64,000 nt of DNA, from positions 1 through 64,000 of IMG/VR virus record IMGVR_UViG_3300019776_000564; one strand, given 5' to 3'. Position numbers and translations under genes: made by a program. The notes under the pieces were generated by a model. That model searched no databases. It saw only the letters and a program-made list of their open reading frames with translations, and had not been told where the DNA came from. Positions 4,340 to 55,216 of the stretch are shown piece after piece. How positions within the stretch are numbered: the first letter of the stretch is position 1; each line of letters opens with the position of its first letter. The stretch is from a virus.

Positions 4340-5302
4340 ATGGCTAATACGCACGACTCTACCTATCTTCGACAGGTAAAAGGTCTGCTTGAGTACGGTC
4401 GAAAAAGCAGTGATCGAACTGGCACTGGCACAATCAAAGCTGCCGGCCTGTCCATGCGATTTCATATGGACAACGGCTTCCCTCTGCTGACCAGCAAATT
4501 CACCAGTATGCGGTTCATCGAACTGGAACTTCGCATGTTCCTGAACGGTATCACGGACAACAAGTTCCTGGCTGATGAAGGTGTCAATATCTGGACGCCG
4601 TTCGCCAACGAAAACGGCGATTTGGGGCCTATCTACGGTTCTATTTGGCGCGGCATCGATAGCGACGAGCAGCCTGTGGATCAGATCACCGAGCTAATGA
4701 AAGGCTTGCGTGAGAACCCAATGAGCCGCCGGCATATCGTTACTGGCTGGATTCCCAAGCTTCTGCCTGTCGAAGGTCGAAGCCACGCTGAAAACGTCAA
4801 TAACGGTCTGCAAGCGCTCCCACCGTGTCACACCATGTGGCAAGTTCACTGCTGTGAGTTGACGGTAGAAGAGCGTGAAGAGCTGGCTCAGAAGTCGCAC
4901 AAAACCTACCCGGTTCTTGAAAGCGATGAGCAGCGCAATTGCGTATTCGATAACCTGAATATCCCACGTTACGGCGTCAGCTTGCAGCTCTATCAGCGTT
5001 CGGCCGACATGTTCCTGGGTGTGCCGTTCAACATCGCTTCTTATAGCCTGCTGCTGCATTACATCGCGCACAGTCTGAATATGAAGCCTATGGAGTTCAT
5101 CTGGAACGGTGGTGACTGCCATATCTACAACAACCACATCGAGCAGATGAATCTGCAAATCTCCCGAGAGGAAGAAGCGCCGGCCTCTCCGACCATTCGC
5201 TTCGCGTGTGCTCCTAAAAATATCTGGGACTATACGGCTGATGATTTCGAGATCGTCGGCTATAAGCACATGGGCAAAATTCAAGGAGACATGGCTGTAT
5301 GA
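4340..5302 (+). CDS. thyA: Thymidylate synthase
   Basis: DRTGTGT, FPLLTSK, LGPIYG, ALPPCH, YQRSADMFLGVPFNIASY, GDCHIYNNH. Confidence 0.97.
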   Translation: MANTHDSTYLRQVKGLLEYGRKSSDRTGTGTIKAAGLSMRFHMDNGFPLLTSKFTSMRFIELELRMFLNGITDNKFLADEGVNIWTPFANENGDLGPIYGSIWRGIDSDEQPVDQITELMKGLRENPMSRRHIVTGWIPKLLPVEGRSHAENVNNGLQALPPCHTMWQVHCCELTVEEREELAQKSHKTYPVLESDEQRNCVFDNLNIPRYGVSLQLYQRSADMFLGVPFNIASYSLLLHYIAHSLNMKPMEFIWNGGDCHIYNNHIEQMNLQISREEEAPASPTIRFACAPKNIWDYTADDFEIVGYKHMGKIQGDMAV

Positions 5303-6144
5303 TGCTCAAGCAAATTTCGCTGTCTATGACAGATAGCGGCGCGATAGGTGTTGGTGACAATCTCCTGTTCTTGTCGAAGGCTGATCTTTTAAGATTCTCC
5401 AAGTTCACTGCCGGCACTGTGATGATTGCTGGGTTTAATACCGCTCAGCAGATGATCTCCGGCGGCGCGAGAATCACTAAAAGCCGACCACTTGTGGTTA
5501 TCACTGAAAGTCGCCATATTTCCTTTCGCCTAAACAGCGAAGAGGGCTATGTCTACTACGCGTCCAGCCTGAAAGAGGCTATCAGTCTCTCTTCGGTGCT
5601 CTGCGAAGAGTATGGTCTTAACGGATATACGATTGTAGGCGGCGTGACCGTGTACAACGATTATCTTGAAATGGTCGACTTGGGCAAAGAAAGGCCGAAT
5701 AGCGCCTATATCTTCAAGCATGAGCTTGATCCATCTAAGCCTGTTCATCCTGAAACGCGCAGCATCAAGCTGGACTTTAAGCGGGTTCTTAAGTTGCTTG
5801 AAGCGCGCATGGTTGACCCGGCGATCAGTTCGATAAAGGCTGACATTCACGGCGGCACTTACAGCGCTCAAACCCGAAGCAAAGGTGGCGAGATCATCAC
5901 CATCTATGACCAAGACTGTATTGACCCAACCTGCGCTCGCAAGATTGGCAATCAGCTTCGCATCAAGTCGGACGCTTCGACGGCGACCATTCGCACTCGC
6001 TCCATCGCCGGCTGGCACGTAAGACGAGATATTCAGTCTGTGGATATCTGGCTCGAAAGCGGTGAAAGCGTTACCTTACGCACAAGCAGTAAGTCCGGGT
6101 TGAACTCCCTGATTTTTGAATTGAACATGACTGCGTTCGACTAA
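5299..6144 (+). CDS. Divergent dihydrofolate reductase-like protein with C-terminal extension
   Basis: GAIGVGDNL..DLLRF..T..IAGFNT, IVGG..VY; coupled to thyA. Confidence 0.65.
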   Translation: MMLKQISLSMTDSGAIGVGDNLLFLSKADLLRFSKFTAGTVMIAGFNTAQQMISGGARITKSRPLVVITESRHISFRLNSEEGYVYYASSLKEAISLSSVLCEEYGLNGYTIVGGVTVYNDYLEMVDLGKERPNSAYIFKHELDPSKPVHPETRSIKLDFKRVLKLLEARMVDPAISSIKADIHGGTYSAQTRSKGGEIITIYDQDCIDPTCARKIGNQLRIKSDASTATIRTRSIAGWHVRRDIQSVDIWLESGESVTLRTSSKSGLNSLIFELNMTAFD

Positions 6145-6194
6145 ATCAACTAAAGGCTCAGCGTGTTGCTGAGCCTTCCACCAAAGGAAATACC

Positions 6195-6842
6195 ATGCCT
6201 CATCCTCAGTTTATCCTCGCCGTAGAAAACGAAACTCTGATCAAAGCAGGTCTCACCGGAGTTGAGCAGGAGCTTCACGTTCTACAGGTTCAGGATTTCC
6301 TACCTCATATCCAAGGTGGCATCGTTATTGGACAGCGCGAAGCGCTTGAGGTTGACGAGTCCAAGCGTCAGATCCTCCCGTACATCACTCTGACCAAGAA
6401 GATCGACGGCGTGCAGAAGTTCTTCGCATACCGTCGCGGTAAAGGCGTTGGTGAAAGTCGTCTGAGCGGCAACGTCAGCATCGGTGTAGGCGGTCATATC
6501 GATCTCGCCGACGTTGTTCATACCGGCAGCGTTATCGATACCATGAGCACTGTCATCACCGCAGTGACCCGTGAACTTGGAGAGGAGATCGAGTTCACTG
6601 GCGACGGTGATGTTGGATTCAACAGCATCGGTGCAATCGTAGAAAACACCAACGCTGTTGGTCGAGTTCACATGGCTCTGTCCATTCTCGGTATTGTTTC
6701 AGAGGACACAGAGGTCAAGTGCGCAGAAGAAGAGTTGGAAACGCTTGGCTGGTTTACCGCAAAAGAGCTTCTGAACTCCGGGTTGCCTCTCGAAAACTGG
6801 ACAAAGATTCTCTGCAACTTCCTCGCGGAGAATGAAGAGTGA
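6195..6842 (+). CDS. NUDIX-family phosphoesterase
   Basis: KRQILPY, SIGVGGHID, RELGEE, VGRVH, LENWT. Confidence 0.8.
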   Translation: MPHPQFILAVENETLIKAGLTGVEQELHVLQVQDFLPHIQGGIVIGQREALEVDESKRQILPYITLTKKIDGVQKFFAYRRGKGVGESRLSGNVSIGVGGHIDLADVVHTGSVIDTMSTVITAVTRELGEEIEFTGDGDVGFNSIGAIVENTNAVGRVHMALSILGIVSEDTEVKCAEEELETLGWFTAKELLNSGLPLENWTKILCNFLAENEE

Positions 6843-7429
6843 GCAAACTCATTGGCGTTGTAGGTGTAATGGGAACGGGTAAAACCACTCTCTGCGCTGA
6901 GAGCGGCTATGAGTTCATCAAGACCGACGTGTCCGGGATATATAAGCGAAACAACCTTGATCCTAAGGTGTTTATGGATTTCGATACTCGTCTGCGGATT
7001 CAGGAAGAGATTCTTGAGTACCACAGCGATATCTGGATGAAGGCTAAAAATGACTCGATGACGGTCATGATCACTGACAGAACGCCGCTTTGTTTCATGG
7101 CGTTCACCCTTGCAGAGATTAGCGGTTATGGATCGCTAACAGAAAAGCAGGATCAGGATCTAAAGAGCTACATTCATCGGTGCTGGTTGGCTATGAAGCT
7201 TTTCGACGGCATCGTGTATCTCAGTCAGTCATTCACGCCTCCTGTAGACCTCTCTGGGAAGGTTCGAGCCTCTATGTCATATGGTTATCGAGAACACTAC
7301 GATAACCTTCTGAAGGGGCTTATGAGCGACATGGATGCTTATCTGGCTAAGTGCGACACATCCGATAAGATTGCAAGGCTTTCGCGCCTTCATCGGTTTG
7401 TTCGCTATGTGAACTGGGTATCGACTTAA
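6839..7429 (+). CDS. P-loop nucleotide kinase-like protein
   Basis: GVMGTGKT, ITDRTP. Confidence 0.75.
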   Translation: MSKLIGVVGVMGTGKTTLCAESGYEFIKTDVSGIYKRNNLDPKVFMDFDTRLRIQEEILEYHSDIWMKAKNDSMTVMITDRTPLCFMAFTLAEISGYGSLTEKQDQDLKSYIHRCWLAMKLFDGIVYLSQSFTPPVDLSGKVRASMSYGYREHYDNLLKGLMSDMDAYLAKCDTSDKIARLSRLHRFVRYVNWVST

Positions 7430-7509
7430 CGCCCATGTAAGCCCTCAGTAGAAAAGTTAGACTGTCAGCTATCAAAGTGACAGTCTTTTTTATTGAAGGA
7501 GAACAAGCA

Positions 7510-8205
7510 ATGCCAGCAGCTAAACCAGCAGTAAAGAAAACTCCGCTGACAACCAAGCAAAAAGAAATCATCACCAACTCTGTGTGCATGGCCCTGTCCA
7601 AGCAGGTTCACGCGGAGACCTGGGAAAATGTCTGCAATGCCTTCGATCGTGGCTTCAAAACGTTCTTTGACGAGATCTACAAGACGCCGGATCAGAAGGC
7701 TGCAATCGAAGTTCTTGTCAGGGATAGCCTTGTAGAAATTATCCCGAGCGTAGAAATCAGGGACTATGTGAATTTCCACATCGTCACCATTGACGCCGGC
7801 ATTGAAGAGTTCAGCGTCGAGACGGGCATCGGCTGCGGCAAGAACTACAGCAAAGGCAAGACGATCATCAGCGGGCGATCAATGGTAGGTATGAAGGGTA
7901 AGTGGCCCAACTTCATCTCCGAAAAGATCAAGTACGCAGGCGATGAGTACGAACCGCTTCGTAAAGCGATGCTTGAGGATGTGACCAAGCAGCTTCTGCC
8001 TTATAAGAAGTATGCCCATGTTGCTCGCGTAACCAGAGCTACTGTTCACGGCTCTAAGTACGTTGAGGATCTCAAAGCCGACATGCCGGAGATCGCTGAT
8101 CTCATCAATGAAGTAACCAAAGTACCTCCACCTGTGCCGACAGTTATCAGCCCTGCAATCAGCGCCTCTCTGTCCTCCCTGTCGCCTATTCGAGTTTGCG
8201 AATGA
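7510..8205 (+). CDS. Hypothetical protein
   Basis: AAGGAG RBS; promoter motif 7433-7463. Confidence 0.75.
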   Translation: MPAAKPAVKKTPLTTKQKEIITNSVCMALSKQVHAETWENVCNAFDRGFKTFFDEIYKTPDQKAAIEVLVRDSLVEIIPSVEIRDYVNFHIVTIDAGIEEFSVETGIGCGKNYSKGKTIISGRSMVGMKGKWPNFISEKIKYAGDEYEPLRKAMLEDVTKQLLPYKKYAHVARVTRATVHGSKYVEDLKADMPEIADLINEVTKVPPPVPTVISPAISASLSSLSPIRVCE

Positions 8206-10296
8206 AACGTTTATTTAAGGATGTTCAATTGGTTCTGACATCGGCGATCACCCTGGCAATCGGTCTGGCTTTTGGTGCTGTAATTGGCTCAGCGCTTGTA
8301 GATAAGCCTAACGAAAACGAAACGAGGGCGGCTCAGAACGAGCTTTGCCTCAAGGCCAACATGAAGCCTATTCTCGAAAAAGGCGAAATCGTCTGCTCTC
8401 CAAGTGAGGGCATTCAGTTGATCCGCGACTTCTTTGACACAAAGATGGCTAGCATTGTGATCGCTGAAAAGCTGCGACAAGAAGGCTTCCGCCCTAAAGG
8501 TGACGTGAACTGGCCTTCTGATAAAAAGGAAGACTTCAGGAAGCTGAACCCAATTGACCCAAACAGCTTTGAAACCAAGTCTAAGGTCACTGAGTAATGA
8601 ACGCATCTGAAGCCTTTTTGAAGTTCTGCAAGAAGAAAGGTATCAAGCCTAACGGTCAATTTGCTGAAGAGAATGGCTATCTATTCGTTGAGGGCTACAA
8701 GGTCGGTCACAAGACTGCAAGCGACCGAGTGCTGAAGTTCCAGCGCATGAGCAAAAAGGCTTCTCAAATGCAGCTTGAGGAGCACACAGAGGTTCTTGAG
8801 AAGTTCCTCAGGGTTTATCAGGCCGCTATTGCAGTCGTCAAAAGTGAAATTGCGGATGTAGCTGTTCATCCGTGTGACGAGAACAATGAAGAGGTGAAAG
8901 CTAAAAAGCTCCCACCTCTTCTTTCCGACCTTTACGAAGCGCTCAAGGATGTCCCTTGAGCATTACAAGTGGAGATGAAAATGAGCAAGCTTAGTCGTAG
9001 CCGTAAGCGTGAGATCCGGGAGAAAGTTCGTGAAGCTGTAGCTTGCGAGATTCGCGATCTGGACGCAAAGGTGTTTGAAAACATCGCGGAGAACGAAGAG
9101 GAACAGGCTTACGTGATGAAGGAGCGTGAAGAGATTGCCGCTCGCATCAACTATAAGCCGACAGGTGATAGCGAGTGAGCCAAACAAAGCTGCAATCTCT
9201 GAAAGAGACGCTATCCAACACTTTCATTGGCATGTTGGGTAGCTGGCTGATTGTTCTCACCTGCATAACCTACATTCAAAACAACCTTGTAGCGGCAACA
9301 ACCTCGACCATCCTTTGCACCTTTTGGAGCGTTGGTCGGGGTTACTGTGTTCGCCGCTACTTCAACAAACGAGAGACAGCATGAAAAAGCTTACAGACAA
9401 GGTTCAGAAACTCGAAGCTCGGGCTAAGCGAACCCTTGCGAAGAAACAGGCAAAGAAGCTTGAGCATCAGGCGGCAAAGTTCCGAGAGGACAGCTTGAAG
9501 CTTGGCTCGCAGCTTTCGGTTGCAGGTCAAAACATCTACAAGATCAACCATCCGGCGTATGAGGAGCTTATCCTCCCGCTTCTTGAACGAGCAGCGTCCA
9601 TCGCAGCGTTCTATGGCTTCAACGCGCTGTTTCAGGTTCATACGCCATTTGAAGAGCAGCCTCTGTTCACCAGTTGTATTGGTACGTTAAACGAAGAAAC
9701 CATTACCCCGACAATGCGCGGCTGCATCGAACTGATCGAGAAGCGCCCTGTCATTGGCAAGGTCAATGACGAGCTTATCTCTAAGCCTCGTACTGAACCT
9801 CTGATCCCCAAAGAATAGCTGCGATAATCACTGCTCATTAGTGAGGTGTTAAATGAGCGACGAATACTGCCTTGATGACGAACTCACCCGTAAAGCGGGT
9901 GAGGCTGCGTTATGGCTTGATGGGGAGATCAAGCGAGGAGGTCTTACACGATTTGAGGCTTACAACGCCCTTATCGTGTTCGATATGATCACGCTTGGCT
10001 TGATAGACCCGAAGTTCAACGACTGGGCGCGTGAAGAGCGAAACAAGGCTGCTATTGCCTATCCCGACAAGGTTGTTATGCACGCATACAACGCAAAGGG
10101 AGAGGAAACAGTTATTTCCGTTTCTCTTCGCCGTTCTGTGGGTGAAGTGGTCGTAACGCAACTGACCAGAAACCCGGAGTTTACATCGAAGACTCATACC
10201 TTTGATAACGAACCCGATCCCGTAACTGCTGCTTGCAAAGGCTATCTCGATATCATCGATAGGCTCAAAAGCAAGGGCTGTGTGGTGGTAGCCTAA
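8202..10296 (+). CDS. Run of six hypothetical ORFs (8202-8597 membrane-anchored, 8597-8959, 8969-9178, 9175-9384 membrane, 9381-9818, 9853-10296)
   Basis: Overlapping start/stop packing. Confidence 0.7.
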
Positions 10297-30710: not shown

Positions 30711-33700
30711 CCGCGGCTTTAACAAACACCATCTCTACCCAATAAGACCCAAGCCCCAACAGTGCCGCGGCTAGCTTTAATAAACGCCGGGCCGTGGGAC
30801 ACCGAGTCCTTGGTAAGATTGGAGCCGCGGCAAGCCACTCTATGGATAGATTTGGGAGAACCAGAAAAAGGCTATAGGTGCCGTTATATATCACCAAGGT
30901 GCGTGTTTACCGCGGGGATAAGAGATAGGCATTACCAAGAGATAGGTAAGAGGCTTGCCAAGGCGTTTAGCCGCGGGAGCCATGTTTACAAATGTTGGTT
31001 TATTCACCGTCTGCCAAAATTTCTCTTACACAGGCACAGAGGTTAAACACGGCTTATACGGTGATAGAGGTGAAAGCAGGCTGAGATAGGTCTACCGCGG
31101 CGGGTATGATGCCTAACCTTGGTTGTTTGAACCACCCGGTATGCCGCGGCTCGGCGGTGTTAAAAACCATAAAACAGGTACTAAACAGGCTACCGGATAA
31201 CACCACTTGCAAGCGTTTACTATGAATCAACTCAGAGCAACAGACTCTGGGAACACTGAGAGAGCACCTATGAAAGACCTGAACGTTTTGCTGAAACAAA
31301 TGCAGGCGCACGAAAACGGTATGACTCTTGAGCAGTATCTGGGTCACTTCACCGAAGTCACCAAAGAACAGCGCCTGTTCAAGCTTGAAAGCTGTGAAGG
31401 TGACACCGGGTTTCTGCTGCGCAACGAAGATGGTTGCTATCACATCTGGTACGTGAGCACCTCTACTTCTCCCCTCTATGAGGGTGAGCGTTACCACGTT
31501 ACAGAAACCGGAAGCTGGTATCCCAATCAGCTCAACGAGGCCATGACTGACCTCATGCTGCAAATGAAGATCGATTGTGCGGGGTTGATCGAGCGTAACG
31601 GGGTGAAAATTCGGTAGAGATGAAACATAGGGGCTTCTGCCCCTTTCTTGTAGATAGGTTTACCGCGGCGATTTTATGACTCCCGACACATACCTAAAGC
31701 AAGCGTTTACTCTAATGTTCTACGCACATGAGAGAGTAACCGATGAACAAGCTCAACTTCGCCGCATACCGGTATGCGCTGAACAACGCCAAAGAAGAAG
31801 TGCAAGATGGCCGTTACTTTGGCGTTAACTGTGTAATGGTTGAACTGGTCAGCATCGACCAAGATGACTATCTGGTGATCTACAGCGCAGTAGAAAACAC
31901 TGGACCAGATACGGCCAACATTTTCTACAACGGTGAGCACTGTGCTGGTGTTATACACATACCCGGCGATCAGTGGTCTAAAGCAAACACCGTATTCACA
32001 GAGTTGTTTGGTGTAGCTCTGAAAGACGGTTTGCGAGGTGTGAAAGCGTATTATGACTCAGTAGCGTAGAAATACGCTCACGGTATAGCGCTGTGAGCTT
32101 CTATAACGCGTTTTGAGAGCTTTACCGCTATAAAGATGAGTCGATGTACTGCTTGTCTTGGGAAAGCGCTCAAAACGCGTTATACGAGCTTCTAGATAAG
32201 CCGTGGCAAACGTCTGTCCCAGTACCTATTGCCAACAAGTGCCAATTGCAAGCGTTTACTATGATCTCAGTGAGCAGCGACACAGCTGCCGTTACTGAGA
32301 GAGTGATATGAAAACCACAGACTTCAAGGTGCTAGCGCCGGTTGCAGTGAAGGGTAAGAGCCTTCGTGAGCTTCAAAAGGCTTTCGTGGCCTATCGTGAC
32401 GACAACGATCTCGGTTCTCGTGACCTGAAACGCTATGACGGCTGTGTGTATCGCAGTGGTGTGCTTGTAGGCTACTTCTCGTACAACGGTCGCTTCTGGC
32501 GTAAAACGATTCACGGTCAACCACTTCACGTCACTTCGTATCACGGGAGCTAACGCCATGCAAAAGTACCAAATTCGCTACACAATCGGTGACAGCGCTC
32601 GCTGCCGTTACTTTGAAGGTGAATACGAAAGCGAAGGTGAAGCTATCGAAGACTGGGAAGACTACTGCGAGCGCTTCGACGACGGTGTTGATTTCATCGA
32701 TTGCCGTGAATTTGCAGAAAACGGTAAAGAGTTTATCGAATGAACAAGCTTGAACTCCGGGAGTTTCTGGAAAAGAAGGCCGCTGAGTACGCCTCGCGTA
32801 ACCCTATCTATACCCATGCAGAGAGCTTTGACCAAGAAAAGCGCCTCAAAGCCAAGATTGAGACCCGTAAGAAGCCTGCAAACCTCACACAAGACGGTTA
32901 TGTGGTGTATCTGAACGAGCTTAAAGTCGGCACTCACAAGACAGAGGTTAAGCCTTCAGAAGACTTGTGGGACGTAGAAATGCCCCGTTATGAGGTTCGC
33001 TACAAAGAAAGGGGTAGTACGGTAATCAAGAGATGGCGCTGCTATGCCCAAGATGCAGACGAAGCCATTGAAGACTTCAAGCACCTGTACAAGAAAACAA
33101 GCGTGGTGAAAGCTTGGATCATCGAGGCTATTAAAATTAGCGAATAGCCATAAACAAAAAAGCCACTTCTTGTTAGAAGTGGCTTTGTTCGTCGGGTATA
33201 GGCATAGCCTATACCCTAGAACGGTAGATTGTCAAGAGCCGCGGCATAGGTTTGTTTACCAACATATGCCAATAGCAAGCGTTTACTATAACAACAGATC
33301 GAAGCAAACGACTTCGACAGTAGAGAGAGCTTTACCATGATTGATTCCCAGATTCTCGCCGGATTATCCGAAGAGCACCGTGAGCGTGTTCTGAACATGA
33401 ACCGTGTAACACCGTTCTTGATGATGTGTGAAGCTGTAGGTTCAGAGGCTCTACCGTCGCAGATTGCTCGCCTCGAAGAATCTGCCAAGAAAATGTTTGC
33501 ACCTGAGTATCGCTTCTATGCTCACCGCGCTGCCGAACTTTGCGGCATCAAGCTGAACCTCGAACGCACCGAAACTGATAATGACGGTATCCCACTATGA
33601 TCGCCACAGCAGTTGTTCAGAAAACCGTGTTTCTCGTAATCATGGCCTGCACAGGCATGAGAGATACAGCCTGTGATGATTCTGTCTATGCCGAATCTTG

Positions 33701-34811
33701 GTATGGCCCAGAAAGCAAAGAAGAGTGCGAAACCTTTATCCACCGTAAAGAGTTCGACCCCAGTGACTACCTTACTCTGGGTAATCATGAATACTACGCA
33801 GTGAGGTGCGAGTGATGAACAACTACGGCTATGAAGTGAAATACTGGGATGCAAACGGGAATCTTCTCTGTGTAGAGGTAGTCGTAGCTGCACCCGAAGA
33901 CTGGCGCTATGCAGAGCGCATGGTTCTAGAGCAGTCTCATGTGACCACTGTAGAAAGCTCTGTGTTCCTGGGCATGACCGACACTGCACCCGGCATTCAA
34001 GAATCAACCGTTCTTGTACTGAGAGAAGCAGAGCCAGAGTAATCTGGCTTTTAAACACAGCCGTGCCGCGGCAAACCTATAGTAGAGGTAGTCCACGGTC
34101 TATAGGCACTAGGCATGACGGTCCATGGACTCCCGGCACACAGGTCATGCGTGTATGGTTCTCTTAAGCCGTTCTAAGAGGTTTACCGCGGCGCGTCCTT
34201 GGGCCGACCCGGGTTAGTCTTCTAAACGCCTCCTAGTGCCTCTCTGAGAGCTTTAAACTGCTTGTATAGCAGCGTCAGACTGCTACCAGACATTGAGAGA
34301 GGCTCCACCATGAAATTGATCTGCAACGGGTTCAAAACCACTGGTACAGACAGTGAAGACCATATCTACTTCTTCAAAGCCACTTTCAGCGGTGAAGACC
34401 TGTTTTTCGAGCTGACCAACAGTGAAATCGCCGAAATCACTGATGACGGTGATTACCAGCTCCCACCACGCTTCGATTTTGGTTTCCGTGAACCTATGAT
34501 CTGCCAGCTTCTTCACTGGATGCATACCGTCTACTGGAAAGACGAAGACGGGATTCTCGAAGGTTGCACCATCGAAATGACTCGACCAGAAGGTGTCTAA
34601 CCAGAGCAGCCCGGTTACACCGGGCTTTCTTAGCTATCTCAGAGCCGCGGTAAGCCGATCTCAGCCAATATCAACCTTGGTCCAAAAAAGGCTATAGGTG
34701 CCGAATATAGGTATAAGGCGGGCTTTGGACATATGTGGTGTAGTCCCGCGGCGCTCTCAAATGAGAATCATTCTCAGGGGCGCTGCGAATCGTTCTCATT
34801 CGCGACCGCGG
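30711..34811. repeat. 14 intergenic CCGCGG-core motifs (extended consensus GATAGGYTTRCCGCGGC, both orientations)
   Basis: Starts at 30711, 30765, 30825, 30910, 30971, 31095, 31144, 31663, 33239, 34066, 34186, 34645, 34746, 34806. Confidence 0.85.
31270..34600 (+). CDS. Small ORFs in separately promoted units (31270-31617, 31743-32069, 32308-32553, 32558-32743, 32740-33147, 33337-33600, 33597-33815, 33815-34042, 34310-34600)
   Basis: Each unit has a CC-N8-CC-N13-(-10) motif and a GAGAGAG RBS on its first gene. Confidence 0.75.
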
Positions 34812-34979
34812 TTGAGACGCATTCTCAAATGCAAATGATTCTCATTCTCAAATACGAATGATTCTCATTTCACTCAAATGAGACGCATTCTCAAATGCAA
34901 ATGATTCTCATTTTCAGACAATAATCGTTCTCATTCTCAAACAAGAATTTATCTAATTCTCAAGTGCGAATGATTCTCA
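34762..34979. promoter_or_regulatory. Array of nine Fur-box-like 15-mers
   Basis: TGAGAATCATTCTCA (perfect 7-1-7) plus eight variants; 34-bp direct repeat 34813-34846 / 34879-34912. Confidence 0.7.
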
Positions 34980-35098
34980 ACACCTGTCTTCTCTTATTAC
35001 ATGCGCACGCGCGCAAGTAGCACAGCAAATTAGAATGAGCAAGAATTTTTTAGTTATATGCTTATGCTTTTCCGATCTATCAAATATCTAATAATCGC

Positions 35099-35126
35099 TT
35101 GCATCAAAATCTAGTTAGTCTAATAT
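35099..35126 (+). promoter_or_regulatory. Sigma70-like promoter of the CC/GG-free operon
   Basis: TTGCAT-N16-TAATAT. Confidence 0.5.
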
Positions 35127-35206
35127 TCAACTCAAGCGACGCAACAACGCGACGCTAACGAAGTAGCTCAATAACGAAGCTACTCACTTCTAGAGAGAGA
35201 TATAAA

Positions 35207-35761
35207 ATGACTCAAGTTAACGCTAAAGCTGTAGCTAACAAAGAAGCTTTTGAAGTTGTTGCAGCTGAGTTTGCTGCAACTAAAGAGCAAGCAAGTGCGC
35301 AAGCTGCTCAAGCTCAAAACGACGAAGAGCGTAAAGCGTTTGCAGATGCTGCTAAAACAGCGTCTACACACGAACGCTACACTAACGCACTTGCTAACAT
35401 GAGCGAAAAAGCGCTCGCAAGTTTGAACAAGTACAAAATCAACGCTACTGAACTTGCTAAACAATCGCGTGAACTGAAAAAGCGCTCTATTGCGATCATC
35501 GAAGCGATTGTAACTAAGCAACGCGTTAACGATCGCGCACTTGACGCAGTGTTACAGTACATCGTCGCTAAAGACGCTGCGAGCATGACGCTTGAGCAAG
35601 TGCGCACGCAAATGCAGCACGAAACTACTACGCAAGCGCAATACTTCAAAACTTGCGCAATCTTTTTCAACTTCGCGCAGTACTCTAAGTCTGAAAAGAC
35701 TATCAACTTCAACAAAGACGCTACTGTCTTGAAAGAGTTGATCGCGATCTACACTGTGTAA
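35207..35761 (+). CDS. Island protein 1 (184 aa; no Gly/Pro/Trp)
   Basis: GAGAGAGA RBS; followed by hairpin plus T tract at 35772-35808. Confidence 0.85.
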   Translation: MTQVNAKAVANKEAFEVVAAEFAATKEQASAQAAQAQNDEERKAFADAAKTASTHERYTNALANMSEKALASLNKYKINATELAKQSRELKKRSIAIIEAIVTKQRVNDRALDAVLQYIVAKDAASMTLEQVRTQMQHETTTQAQYFKTCAIFFNFAQYSKSEKTINFNKDATVLKELIAIYTV

Positions 35762-35829
35762 CAGTGTGCGCAAGCGCTCTAGAACGTCTCTAGAGCGCTT
35801 TTCTTTTCTAGTCTGAGTGAGACAACGCA

Positions 35830-36129
35830 ATGAACAAGCAAATCGCTGTAAACGCGCTACAGAGCGCTACAGAGCAAGCGCTGCTAGACGTGCAAGCTAG
35901 CGTGCTGCATATGCTACAGAATCGTAGTGCTGAGACGTACTATCAGCACGCACAAGCGCTGCGACATACGCTCACATACGCTAGCACTGAGTATGTGTTT
36001 AACGCTGTTAAACGACACGTGCAGCGCACTACAGCGCAACGTGTGAGCATGAAGCAAAGTATCAGTGTATTGCGCAGTGATATACGCGCTGCTATGCGTG
36101 CAGATAAGTATTCATTGTTTGCACACTAA
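35830..36129 (+). CDS. Island protein 2 (99 aa; no Gly/Pro/Trp)
   Basis: ORF with GAGTGAG RBS. Confidence 0.7.
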   Translation: MNKQIAVNALQSATEQALLDVQASVLHMLQNRSAETYYQHAQALRHTLTYASTEYVFNAVKRHVQRTTAQRVSMKQSISVLRSDIRAAMRADKYSLFAH

Positions 36130-36164
36130 GTTATTTAAACTTTTCTCTTCTTACTTGTGAGTAT

Positions 36165-36497
36165 ATGCAAATGACTAAAGTATCGTTCTCTAACGTTATC
36201 GCTGACGCTTTCAGCGCTGAACAAATGCAAGATATCAGCAAAGCAGACTATAACAATCTGCTTTCTATTCTCGACATAAAGTCAAAGTATATCGAGTTTG
36301 TTAATAACGCTGAGTGCATGCACTTGCTTATTGTGCATGATGCGCGCAATAACAAGTATGAAATTGTTAGTGTGTATATCAGCGCTAACTTAGAGCATTA
36401 TCAAGTAACGTTAGTTGATACTTGCGATACACTGTCAGACGCATATAACGAACTGCATAATTCGTTGCAACTTCTACTCAGTGAGTGCGACAACTAA
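36165..36497 (+). CDS. Island protein 3 (110 aa, acidic; no Gly/Pro/Trp)
   Basis: ORF. Confidence 0.75.
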   Translation: MQMTKVSFSNVIADAFSAEQMQDISKADYNNLLSILDIKSKYIEFVNNAECMHLLIVHDARNNKYEIVSVYISANLEHYQVTLVDTCDTLSDAYNELHNSLQLLLSECDN

Positions 36498-36505
36498 GTT
36501 AGTTG

Positions 36506-36684
36506 CTTACTTACACTTTTCTAAGTTGTCAAAGTCTTAGAAAAGTGTAAGTAAGACGTGACCCTACTCCCTTCTAAATCCCGGATACCTGCACTCTAAC
36601 CTTACACAGGTAGGTAGGAAGTTCCCACACGCTCTCCTTACACAGGTAGGAACAGGTTCACAATACAATCCCTTACACAGGTAG
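36506..36684. repeat. 20-bp perfect inverted repeat plus three CCTTACACAGGTAG direct repeats
   Basis: Arms 36506-36525 and 36536-36555; repeats at 36600, 36636, 36671. Confidence 0.9.
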
Positions 36685-36779
36685 CCTTACGCTCCCAACG
36701 TCTTACGCACATACTTGATAAACAGTCAGCGCTGATAAGCAGCTAAGCACTTAACCACTAAACACTTAAGGAGTTACCC

Positions 36780-51575: not shown

Positions 51576-52298
51576 ATGGATACCATGACAGAAAACACAG
51601 AAAAACCTGCATCCGGCGTTGATGATGACGAAAAGTCCAAACGCCTGACGCCTCGCGAATACGCCAGAGCCAAGCAAATGTGGCAGTCCGGCGATTACAG
51701 CCTCAAGGAAATCTCCGACACCGTTGGCGTAAGTGCCACTGCTCTCAGTCGCCGGTTTAAGCGAGACAGCGTTTCCAAAGGCTCTGATGCCAAAAAGGTT
51801 TCGGCCGCAGTCAAGCGCGCCATCGAAAAGACCAGTGCGGCTCAGGCTGAAGAACTGGCTTCTACGGCGCACGACATCAAAATGTTGGCTCTGAAATCAA
51901 TCGAGCTATTCAACAAGAAGAACTATGCGGACGTAGTTGCCTGTATTAAGGCGAATCGACCATTGGCCGAAATTCAGGGCGACTTGAAAGCTTTGAAAAT
52001 CGCCTCTGAAATCGTCAGCATGAACTACGGCACCGGTGCCAGGATTCTGGGTCTCGACCAAGACCTCAATTCTGACGACCAACTGCCGGAACTCGTCATT
52101 AACCTGATGACCGAGAATGATGTCGCCGAGCTTCGTGAGCAGCAGCGCCGTGAAGAGTTGGAGGCAAACGGTGAAATTGATGACGATGACCTGCTCGGTA
52201 CAGAGCTAAGCTCGGACGATCTTGATGCACTTGATGCGGCGCTTGACGAGGACGATGACGACATTGTTGTCGAAGGCGACGACCCGGCGGTGACCTAA
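51576..52298 (+). CDS. Terminase small subunit
   Basis: N-terminal HTH; immediately upstream of large subunit. Confidence 0.7.
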   Translation: MDTMTENTEKPASGVDDDEKSKRLTPREYARAKQMWQSGDYSLKEISDTVGVSATALSRRFKRDSVSKGSDAKKVSAAVKRAIEKTSAAQAEELASTAHDIKMLALKSIELFNKKNYADVVACIKANRPLAEIQGDLKALKIASEIVSMNYGTGARILGLDQDLNSDDQLPELVINLMTENDVAELREQQRREELEANGEIDDDDLLGTELSSDDLDALDAALDEDDDDIVVEGDDPAVT

Positions 52299-53566
52299 TG
52301 AAGATCACTAACGCCTCGCCTCAGTTAACACCTCTTGCGCTGAAGATCGGTCTTCATCCAAAGCAAGCAGAGGTGTTCCTTGATACGACTCGATTTCGAG
52401 TCGTAGTTGCCGGCCGTCGTTGGGGTAAAACTGCCCTAGCTAAGACGGAGATGATTCAACGAGCCAAGATACCCGGTCAAAAGATTTGGTACATCGCCCC
52501 GACATACCGGATGGCGAAGCAAATCATGTGGAACGACCTTAAAGCCTCTATCCCTCGAAAGTGGATTATTCGAGAGCATGAGACTGAAATGTCCATTACG
52601 CTCCGAAATGGCTCGATCATCGAATGCAAGGGCGCAGATAACCCTGACACTCTTCGAGGCGTTGGTCTTAACTTCGTGGTAATGGACGAGTTCCAGGACA
52701 TCCGTCCTGACACTTGGACTACGATTATCCGTCCTACTTTGGCTAAAGACCGCGGTGAAGCTCTATTCATCGGTACGCCAAAGGCTTACAACCAGTTGTA
52801 TGAGGTTTATCAGTTCGGACAAGACCCTGCTCGCAAGGCATGGTCTAGCTATCAGTTCCCAACCATCACCTCACCTTTCATCCCTGAGACGGAGATCATC
52901 GAAGCTCGCAGGGATATGGACCCTCGGACATTCAGACAGGAGTTTGAGGCGTCCTTTGAAACTATGAGTGGTCGAGTCTACTACCCGTTCGATCGTCGCG
53001 AGCATTGCAGCACAGACATCAAGTTCAACCCGGGTCGACCTATCTATGTTGGCGTGGACTTTAACATTGACCCAATGTCCGCTTGCATTATGCAGCCCCA
53101 AACAAACGGCGAACTCTGGGTGGTTGATGAGATCTTCCTTCATAACTCCAACACCCTTGAGGTTTGTGAGGAACTGGAGAGAAGGTATTGGCGATATATG
53201 AGCCAGATCACAATCTTCCCTGACCCGGCCGGCGCTGCACGTCAGCACGCTCGCGGTGAATCTGACCTTGAGATCTTCAGGCAGAAAGGATTCAATCGGA
53301 TTAAGTTCCGCAGAAAGCACCCGCTTATTGCAGACCGTGTTAACAGCGTTAACCGTTTATTAAAGGACGCATCCGGCAAAATCACCCTTAAGGTGAATAC
53401 TGGATGTACAAACGTAGTCCAGTCTCTTGAGCAAACCCTGTACAAGGCAGGCAGTCGAGATATCGATAAGGCCGCAAGTATGGAGCACATCACTGACGCT
53501 ATGGGCTACTGCATTGAACTGGAACATCCGGTCAAAAAAGTTGTTATCGTCGGACACTCTCTATAA
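52298..53566 (+). CDS. Terminase large subunit
   Basis: AGRRWGKT, YIAPT, VVMDE, IGTP, GVDFN, HITDAMGY. Confidence 0.95.
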   Translation: MKITNASPQLTPLALKIGLHPKQAEVFLDTTRFRVVVAGRRWGKTALAKTEMIQRAKIPGQKIWYIAPTYRMAKQIMWNDLKASIPRKWIIREHETEMSITLRNGSIIECKGADNPDTLRGVGLNFVVMDEFQDIRPDTWTTIIRPTLAKDRGEALFIGTPKAYNQLYEVYQFGQDPARKAWSSYQFPTITSPFIPETEIIEARRDMDPRTFRQEFEASFETMSGRVYYPFDRREHCSTDIKFNPGRPIYVGVDFNIDPMSACIMQPQTNGELWVVDEIFLHNSNTLEVCEELERRYWRYMSQITIFPDPAGAARQHARGESDLEIFRQKGFNRIKFRRKHPLIADRVNSVNRLLKDASGKITLKVNTGCTNVVQSLEQTLYKAGSRDIDKAASMEHITDAMGYCIELEHPVKKVVIVGHSL

Positions 53567-53614: not shown

Positions 53615-55216
53615 GTGGATACGCCCATGCCAGTTGACAGTAAGACCGCCAAGGCGATAGTTGAGAGAAAGCACCCTCTTTACGAAGAGCTTGTGCCTCA
53701 CTGGGATTTCCTTGAGGCCAGTTACAGGGGTGGGCGTGGGTGGTTCAAGAACAACATCTTCCGCTACATCAAGGAAGGTGATCGCGAGTACAAGGATCGC
53801 GTAGAGCGAGCCTATCGATTCAACCATACTCGCGAAACAGTTGATCTGGTCAATAAATATCTTTTCCGAGCACCTATTGCCCGAAACTTTGATGATGCTC
53901 CCGAGAGCGTCAGAGAGTTCTGGAATGATGTGGACGAAACCGGCCTCAGCATTGACGAGTTCATGCGGATCGTTTCGCTCAAGCAATCCATTTTCGGCAG
54001 ACCTTGGATCGTAATCGATAACAGAGTTACCGATATCCCTGAGAACGCCAGCAAAGCTGACACCAAAGGTGTTGATCTTTACGCCTATATGGTTCCGCCT
54101 CAGCAGGTTCCAGACTACGCTTTCGATGAGTGTGGTGAACTGTTGTGGGTATTGATCGAGGAGCACATCCGAGACGACCAAGACCCTATTAACGGCACAG
54201 GTGACGTTTTCAAGAGATATCGCTTGTGGACTCGCACTGACTGGATGCTGTTTGAGTTCAAGAAGGGTTCCGGCAAGTCTGGCGGTAGATGGGAACAGGT
54301 CGACGAAGGTCGCCATGATCTCGGTCTTGTTCCAGCCATTCCCGCAAACAACAGCGTAATCAACGATAAGTGGGACTGCCCGGCTCTGATTGCTGAGGTT
54401 GCCTACCTAGATCGCGCAGTCTCCAACTACGCGAGTAACCTTGATGCCATCATTCAAGACCAGTCGTTCTCACAGCTTGCGATGCCGGCTCAGGGCGTAT
54501 TACCTGGCGATGACGCTTACAACAAGGTTCTCGAAATGGGGACTAAACGAGTGTTTCTGTATGACGGAGAAGCTGGAGCCGCTCCACAGTTCCTCTCTCC
54601 TGATCCGAGTCAGGCATCGCTTATCCTTTCTGCCATTGGTCAATTGATCAACGAGATCTACCATTCGGTTGGTCTTGCAGGTGAAAGAACAAAGCAGGAC
54701 AACAGCAAGGGTATCGATAACAGTTCCGGCGTTGCTAAGGCTGTGGACTTTGAAAGGGTAGTTGCATTACTCTCGTCCAAAGCAGATGCTTTGGAAGTTA
54801 TCGAAGCCAAGATGCTGAAAATTATTTGTGCGTGGTCTGGTGAAGAACTGCCAGATGATGTAGAACTTGTTACCTACCCAGTAGAGAGCCAGTTTGACGT
54901 TCGCACTCTGTACGACGAGATCGATATTGGCATGAAGCTTCGTCTTATGGGCTTGCCGCCAATGATCCTCGAAGAGCAAGTAAATCGCCTTGTAACTAAA
55001 CTCTTCCCGGGTCTAGGTGAAAAGGTGATTGAATCGATCAAAGCAGAAGTTAAGCAATGGGCAAATGAGCCACCACCGGGAGAGACTCCGGCTGGCAACA
55101 AACCCGGAAGCGACGCTGCCGCTAAGGTCGTAGAGGAAGCAAAGCGCAATCGCGCAGCGGCCTCTGAAAAGAAAACCGCCACACAAAGCCGAGAGACTGG
55201 CAAAACCAACGGCTAA
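53615..55216 (+). CDS. Portal protein
   Basis: Size and position; YRGG, SSGVAKAVDF. Confidence 0.85.
   Translation: MDTPMPVDSKTAKAIVERKHPLYEELVPHWDFLEASYRGGRGWFKNNIFRYIKEGDREYKDRVERAYRFNHTRETVDLVNKYLFRAPIARNFDDAPESVREFWNDVDETGLSIDEFMRIVSLKQSIFGRPWIVIDNRVTDIPENASKADTKGVDLYAYMVPPQQVPDYAFDECGELLWVLIEEHIRDDQDPINGTGDVFKRYRLWTRTDWMLFEFKKGSGKSGGRWEQVDEGRHDLGLVPAIPANNSVINDKWDCPALIAEVAYLDRAVSNYASNLDAIIQDQSFSQLAMPAQGVLPGDDAYNKVLEMGTKRVFLYDGEAGAAPQFLSPDPSQASLILSAIGQLINEIYHSVGLAGERTKQDNSKGIDNSSGVAKAVDFERVVALLSSKADALEVIEAKMLKIICAWSGEELPDDVELVTYPVESQFDVRTLYDEIDIGMKLRLMGLPPMILEEQVNRLVTKLFPGLGEKVIESIKAEVKQWANEPPPGETPAGNKPGSDAAAKVVEEAKRNRAAASEKKTATQSRETGKTNG

Follow-up and report, generated by a model that had tools for sequence, protein, structure and literature searches.

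At the boundary of its early genes, the genome of a Nickievirus-like phage carries a dense array of sites that, at the level of sequence, are operators for the ferric uptake regulator Fur, an iron repressor of bacteria; such sites switch bacterial iron genes. This oversized Fur-like cluster has no iron gene attached and heads what appears to be the first transcription unit of the phage, and the same module marks the spot at which T5-type phages pause the injection of their DNA. Its occurrence outside the T5-like family, just upstream of the putative promoter of an early operon free of CC and GG dinucleotides, is new. The sequence match, the clustering of the sites and their comparative distribution are directly seen, and the explanation that we favour, at about an even chance, is that of a portable array that would recruit host Fe-Fur and act in cis at the early-region boundary.

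The window analysed here is a stretch of 64,000 nt that covers the first 64 kb of a genome of 108,018 bp. The contig was assembled as a circle with a 90-bp end overlap, and since the joint (108018/1) is crossed by the open reading frame (ORF) of a 782-aa ribonucleotide reductase (RNR), the contig ends are arbitrary. By sequence the phage is Nickievirus-like and not T5-like. The 533-aa ORF at 53615-55216 encodes the portal and not the terminase, the large subunit of which (terL) is encoded at 52298-53566. It shares 78-80% identity with the portals of Nickievirus phages that infect Pseudomonas syringae, and ~50% with the portals of SSU5-type phage-plasmids and of phages from Rhizobium, Xanthomonas and Stenotrophomonas. 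A tblastn comparison of the T5 pre-early proteins (dmp, A1, A2 and others) with the genome gave no significant match, and a search of the phage genome for a Fur-family gene found none.

The array lies at the centre of ~600 bp of non-coding DNA that stretches from a terminator-like hairpin to the ATG at 35207, and its G+C content is 38.5% (Table 1). The original prediction had listed nine 15-mers, at 34762, 34784, 34813, 34830, 34853, 34879, 34896, 34919 and 34965, all ending in TTCTCA, together with a 34-bp duplication; all nine positions and endings are right and the duplication is exact, with a period of 66 bp. The actual number of TTCTCA cores on the plus strand of the array is 12, where 0.07 would be expected in 231 bp from the remaining genome, and successive cores are spaced by 22, 29, 17, 6, 17, 26, 17, 23, 6, 23 and 17 bp. 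All but one of the 13 TTCTCA cores share the same orientation, and the array holds 11 of the 19 copies of ATTCTCA in the 64-kb window. Five site pairs are 6 bp apart (34825/34831, 34848/34854, 34891/34897, 34914/34920 and 34960/34966). A structured RNA at the array was considered and rejected, since the fold z-score of -6 is expected from a row of palindromes and Rfam gave no real match.

Table 1. Features of the array, its surroundings and comparable loci. Positions are those of the window or, where a contig is named, of that contig.
Feature	Position	Strand	Remarks
Terminator-like hairpin	34608-34631	+	7-bp GC stem, TTCTT tail; closes the long rightward gene block upstream
Family-conserved left intergenic part	34642-34755		Alignment with nickie and ZY21
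Motifs of the left part	34642-34650; 34692-34718; 34746-34755		GAGCCGCGG; CTATAGG...TATAGG; CCGCGGCGCT
Array of Fur-operator-like sites	34755-34985	+	12 TTCTCA cores, ~6 pairs of overlapping 19-mers
First site	34757-34776		Sole perfect 7-1-7 palindrome, TGAGAAT-C-ATTCTCA; 15.5 bits
Exact 34-bp duplication	34813-34912	+	34813-34846 and 34879-34912
Overlapping site pair	34825-34849		34825 (11.6 bits) and 34831 (18.3 bits)
Overlapping site pair	34891-34915		34891 (11.6 bits) and 34897 (19.3 bits, best in genome)
Overlapping site pair	34914-34938		34914 (6.5 bits) and 34920 (15.2 bits)
ACATGCGC and alternating GC run	34999-35014		Directly 3' of the array
Candidate host-type early promoter	35099-35126	+	TTGCAT-16 nt-TAATAT; in relatives cgcTTGCA...TAgAAT
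Three-gene CC/GG-free early operon	35207-36497	+	Genes 35207-35761, 35830-36129 and 36165-36497
Long near-perfect hairpin closing the island	36505-36557	+	Identified by reading; otherwise only spurious miRNA-like matches
Repeat arrays of relatives	L258 1780-1930; L259 1990-2140; L003 8460-8700; L257 1-330		
AATGMGAATSATTCKCATT(TAGA) upstream of terL	L019, L051, L058, L066, L068, L075, L082, L087, L088, L091, L093, L108, L110		
LexA-type boxes	L001 (T5, NC_005859) 9411, 6213; L002 5812, 8681, 8782; L007 2734; L008 2735; L020 3375; L094 37; L101 6585; L104 1879; L080 3430		

The likeness of these sites to Fur boxes had been proposed from inspection of the letters and was scored with a matrix to which nine Fur-regulated promoter regions of E. 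coli K-12 (fepA-fes, fepD-entS, fepB-entC, fhuA, cirA, fiu, fecI, tonB and exbB) each contributed their best site. The training sites score 12-20 bits, and in 39 kb of E. coli DNA that served as a control, scores of at least 12 bits occur almost exclusively at known Fur-regulated intergenic regions. Matrix scoring bears the proposal out, with four matches of at least 15 bits in the array (19.3, 18.3, 15.5 and 15.2 bits), which are the four top scores of the genome. At a threshold of at least 11.5 bits, nine matches fall within the array and one elsewhere in 108 kb, while 1000 shuffles of the array never gave more than two such matches and averaged 0.03. Likewise, all nine matches of the 108-kb genome to the motif AATGAKAATNATTMTCATT, at 14 or more of 18 positions, sit in the array.

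Comparison with Fur sites of other bacteria points in the same direction. The array core is that of the Xanthomonas campestris Fur consensus, AATGAgAATcATTctCATT (PMC1790865), with which the first site, AATGAGAATCATTCTCA, agrees at 17 of 19 bases, and it is also resembled by the Fur sites of A. baumannii (PMC3055841). As in bacterial Fur operators, a 19-mer close to the first site precedes iron-uptake genes: the consensus AATGAGAATCATTCTCATT, which shares 17 of 19 bases with that site, occurs in more than 120 bacterial genomes, and among ten adjoining ORFs that were chosen for large size, a choice that favours receptors, five encode TonB-dependent receptors, two FeoB and one a ZnuA-type binding protein. 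Fur reads the G of TGA, the T bases and the AT-rich centre directly, and the position at which the phage has G/C for T/A is free to vary in the crystal structures (PMC4506495); all three of the features that Fur reads are kept in the array sites. Many phage copies have a recurring TGCGAAT half-site that is off the Fur consensus. In footprinted Fur clusters of E. coli, neighbouring sites overlap at a spacing of 3 or 6 bp (Chen et al. 2007, PMC2189734). The grounds for the Fur-box-like assignment are therefore the matrix scores, the pairing of sites at 6 bp, the match to the Xanthomonas consensus and the very similar 19-mer in front of iron-uptake genes. With the E. coli clusters (fepA-fes, fepB-entC, fhuA, iucA and others) the array has in common the 19-bp AT-rich dyad, the contacted G and T bases, the 6-bp overlaps and scores within the range of footprinted sites, whereas it differs from them in its length, 229 bp as against a maximum of 142 bp (PMC2189734), and in being located on a virulent-type genome where it overlaps no promoter and has no iron gene downstream. 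A search for Fur boxes in the genomes of T5 or of lytic phages found nothing relevant in the literature covered.

Parts of the intergenic region that surrounds the array are conserved in the family. The hairpin at its left end narrowly fails the T-run rule of the terminator scanner, and the same element is present at this place in the related phages nickie and ZY21; the motifs of the conserved left part are present also in three further relatives (L257, L259 and L262). On the other side, a GTGCGCGC-type element that follows the array is kept in relatives, and ACATGCGC is found 3' of the array in an unrelated phage group (L383-L385) as well. From reading and alignment, the TTGCAT/TAATAT element is likely to be a host-type early promoter, which is sub-threshold in the promoter scan; the scan of the array itself revealed no good promoter overlapped by it. 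The stretch free of CC and GG downstream of the array, to which the original prediction had drawn attention, is real and extends from 35073 to 36561. Searches of the island and neighbouring ORFs against PHROGs and Pfam gave no informative match and no initiator or HTH family nearby. For the first island protein 77 relatives were found, every one an unnamed phage protein; closer relatives, with an island protein at 83% identity, are known from short contigs only. Three copies of CCTTACACAGGTAG are present at 36600-36690, in a CC/GG-rich spacer between the closing hairpin and the next gene (36780).

The similarity to T5-type phages emerged from a blastn search with the array region and not from a motif scan. 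In Yersinia phage phiR2-01 this search matched the non-coding "repeat_region"; it also matched the corresponding DNA in Erwinia phage KEY, in Pantoea phage AAS21 and in a 146-kb coliphage. In T5 (NC_005859) the core AATGAGAATCATT is repeated at 9549-9718, within the annotated injection stop signal. The elements located there, Repeat Region 3 with direct repeat C, DRE and palindromes E-I, were described as having a function impossible to guess, and 9618, the estimated shear point of the first-step-transfer DNA, falls among these repeats; neither Fur nor LexA is mentioned in that account (Davison, bioRxiv 10.1101/866236). The phage array resembles the T5 region in the repeated AATGAGAATCATT core with palindromic copies, in its location in non-coding DNA after a terminator and in the paired sites 6 bp apart. 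In contrast, the DnaA boxes (IRD'-spacer-IRC'), the LexA-type palindrome CTGTATAAATATACAG and the DRD repeats GTGCAAATCCGACA of T5 were sought in 33500-36000 and none was found, the DRD repeats being absent genome-wide. Further differences are that this phage belongs to another family and has no homologues of A1, A2 or dmp, that its array stands upstream of the early promoter whereas that of T5 lies behind the pre-early genes, and that all T5-likes keep the module whereas the Nickievirus-like family does not. Of the T5 region, this phage thus has the Fur-like module alone, and the occurrence of that module in another phage family without A1/A2 or DnaA boxes marks it as mobile and as separable from the T5 machinery. 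To our knowledge, the host factor of the T5-type injection pause has never been identified. The presence of the same module in T5-type injection-stop DNA suggests that early infection is probably subject to an iron sensor of the host.

As a separate observation, the DnaA boxes and the Fur-like array in the injection-stop regions of T5-like phages are accompanied by a perfect SOS box of the LexA type, either CTGTATAAATATACAG or a close variant of it, and such a box was found even in a distant T5-like contig, the A1 protein of which is 31% identical.

A motif scan of IMG/VR revealed arrays in T5-like contigs and in several others; arrays of the same grammar occur in T5-like phages, the 146-kb coliphage and other contigs. 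A second scan added a further lineage, L383-L385, in which the parts follow one another as in the window: G-rich repeats, an array of four to five sites, ACATGCGC, a TTGCGA/TATAAT promoter 60-100 bp further on, and an operon. This recurrence, together with the location of the window's array between a terminator and a putative immediate-early promoter, makes a role in cis our best guess. Judged from the sequence and from the known behaviour of Fur, binding of Fur to the array is reasonably likely, and such good sites would be expected to carry Fe-Fur in any proteobacterial host; an effect in cis, taken overall, has in our estimation somewhat less than an even prospect. In an iron-replete cell, Fe-Fur dimers would bind the ~6 overlapping site pairs cooperatively and coat ~230 bp, from the terminator of the preceding gene block to the host-type promoter of the CC/GG-free operon, presumed to be the first expressed. 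Such a nucleoprotein block would tie events at the early boundary to the iron state of the host. The event that depends on iron could be read-through, access to the promoter, silencing or perhaps the entry of the DNA. Fur sites can act from upstream, as at E. coli ftnA, where upstream Fur sites activate by displacing H-NS, or by number alone, as in the Fur titration assay, and the array would resemble both in this respect. Since no promoter is overlapped, simple repression is not the obvious mode, and classical repression is not favoured because the array ends ~115 bp upstream of the -35 element (35099) and relatives keep their promoters without it; in E. coli, ~83% of Fur clusters overlap a promoter (PMC2189734).

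Three functions had been put forward in the original prediction, namely iron-dependent control of the island, a Fur sponge and a coating of the leading DNA end, and all three are hypothetical. The number of sites also bears on a function in trans, in which the hundreds of ~12-site copies made during replication would act as a sponge that draws Fe-Fur off host operators and thereby de-represses iron uptake, for example for the benefit of the phage RNR. Titration of Fur by multicopy Fur boxes is the principle of the FURTA assay, and the number of Fur molecules per cell is roughly 5,000-10,000. Many strong sites without a promoter are better suited to titration than to repression, the array is longer than every E. 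coli Fur cluster and an RNR gene is present, but de-repression would come late in the lytic cycle with little time to pay off, and the nearest relatives manage without an array. Moreover, T5-like phages have kept these arrays although they destroy the DNA of the host within minutes, which would leave a sponge without a target. We therefore regard titration as quite unlikely to be the function of the array.

To place the array in the context of its family, we compared nickie and ZY21 with the contigs L257-L262, all six of which carry the island gene. All sampled relatives keep the CC/GG-poor island and cgcTTGCA-type promoters, and no Fur-like sites were found upstream of the island in nickie, ZY21 or L257-L262, which implies that the array is dispensable for the family. 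Instead, each relative has its own repeats in the same spacer, 3' of the shared left part (GAGCCGCGG, CTATAGG...TATAGG). The spacers of nickie, L257 and L262 contain CCGCGG repeats and G-rich runs, that of L258 five copies of TTCCGCCWGGCGGAA, and that of L259 three to four copies of TGCGGAT-N-ATCCTCA. On this comparison of sequences the array occupies a hypervariable cassette. The L259 repeat is a symmetric, GC-shifted form of the TGCGAAT-N-ATTCTCA of the window, to which the Fur matrix gives no score; a scan of IMG/VR with the GC-shifted motif returned matches at about chance level, with two copies only in the contig of its origin.

It is the L259 variant that speaks most strongly for a binder other than Fur, since such symmetric change is the pattern expected from a co-evolving phage protein. 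The array could, by this argument, represent iterons for a phage-encoded binder, either an early regulator or a terminal-repeat boundary factor for packaging or processing, and its Fur likeness would be incidental to an AT-rich dyad. The co-orientation of 12 of the 13 cores at intervals of 17, 23 or 26 bp is iteron-like, the region is hypervariable, with other repeats in L258, nickie, L257 and L262, and several T5 copies retain only the half-core AATGAGAATCATT. A boundary factor would also be in keeping with the long direct terminal repeats reported for the Nickievirus member Nican01, for which the source gives no coordinates (PMC11256456), and with the two assemblies of relatives that break within the region.

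With regard to these assemblies, contig L257 ends 740 bp and contig L261 starts 533 bp upstream of the island gene, so that two of ~9 relatives break inside the repeat region, and one assembly is circular with a 127-bp overlap. The breaks might reflect a long-terminal-repeat boundary, or merely the repeats. The contig-end overlaps of three relatives were considered as physical repeats and rejected, all of them being 127-bp assembler overlaps.

Also in favour of a phage-encoded binder are ~15 contigs with a terL 35-47% identical to that of this phage, in which one or two copies of the 19-mer are found in the non-coding DNA, 370-1100 bp upstream of terL; in the two contigs that were checked (L068 and L093), this DNA sits upstream of terS. 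In L029 and L125 the AATGMGAATSATTCKCATT(TAGA) site is downstream of terL. Several DnaA boxes are found at this location in L093, and GGGTAAACCCTAT repeats in L068, L058 and L091. Against a terminase-linked factor, the putative terS of this phage is 77-79% identical to those of nickie and L257, which have no motif, and 61% identical to that of the L259 genome; being closer in the motif-less relatives, terS does not co-vary with the motif, and it is encoded 16.6 kb from the array. The only proteins common to this phage and the T5-like or other array-bearing loci are terL and a few replication-type ORFs, none of which is both DNA-binding and adjoining an array, and no initiator or HTH family is encoded nearby. 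Since, in addition, the match to real Fur operators is far above chance, binding by a phage protein, which the original prediction had named as the alternative that would refute it, is weakened, and we consider it unlikely.

Iterons beside an AT-rich segment might alternatively indicate a replication origin. The direct repeats are about two helical turns apart and are followed by AT-rich DNA, and the distant portal relatives include SSU5-type phage-plasmids, but the region contains neither DnaA boxes nor a nearby initiator gene, and the relatives, which also need to replicate, do so without the array; an origin at this site is extremely improbable. The absence of the array from all sampled relatives, its position within a hypervariable spacer and its nearest DNA matches, namely the injection-stop repeats in Yersinia, Erwinia and Pantoea phages of the T5-like type, would fit a neutral remnant that has no role in this phage and that was left by recombination with a T5-like phage when the two shared a host. 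However, the 12 intact cores and the recent exact 34-bp duplication suggest expansion and not decay, the Fur-like module is present by itself, without the DnaA boxes, LexA boxes or DRD repeats, and the arrangement of an array followed by a promoter is repeated in L383-L385. A remnant is thus very improbable indeed.

Returning to host Fur acting in cis, if Fur does bind the array, this would mean that phages read or exploit the iron state of the host in the first minute of infection, and the relatives with and without the array provide a natural comparison for an effect of host Fur on early events. On a broader reading, which we regard as very unlikely, portable operator arrays for global regulators of the host (Fur here, and Fur with a perfect LexA box and DnaA boxes in T5-likes) would serve the entry and early programme of unrelated lytic phages. 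The bound host proteins would then act as a clamp or sensor where the first-entering DNA has its edge, so that the iron, SOS and replication state of the cell would bear on DNA transfer or on immediate-early expression; if true, this would name the long-sought host factor of the T5 injection stop.

Finally, the genome has a G+C content of 49.6%, compared with 52-57% in its Nickievirus relatives, and the T5-like phages that the array matches most closely in DNA are those of Yersinia, Erwinia and Pantoea; from these two observations we would guess that the host is perhaps a plant-associated enterobacterium rather than a Pseudomonas.
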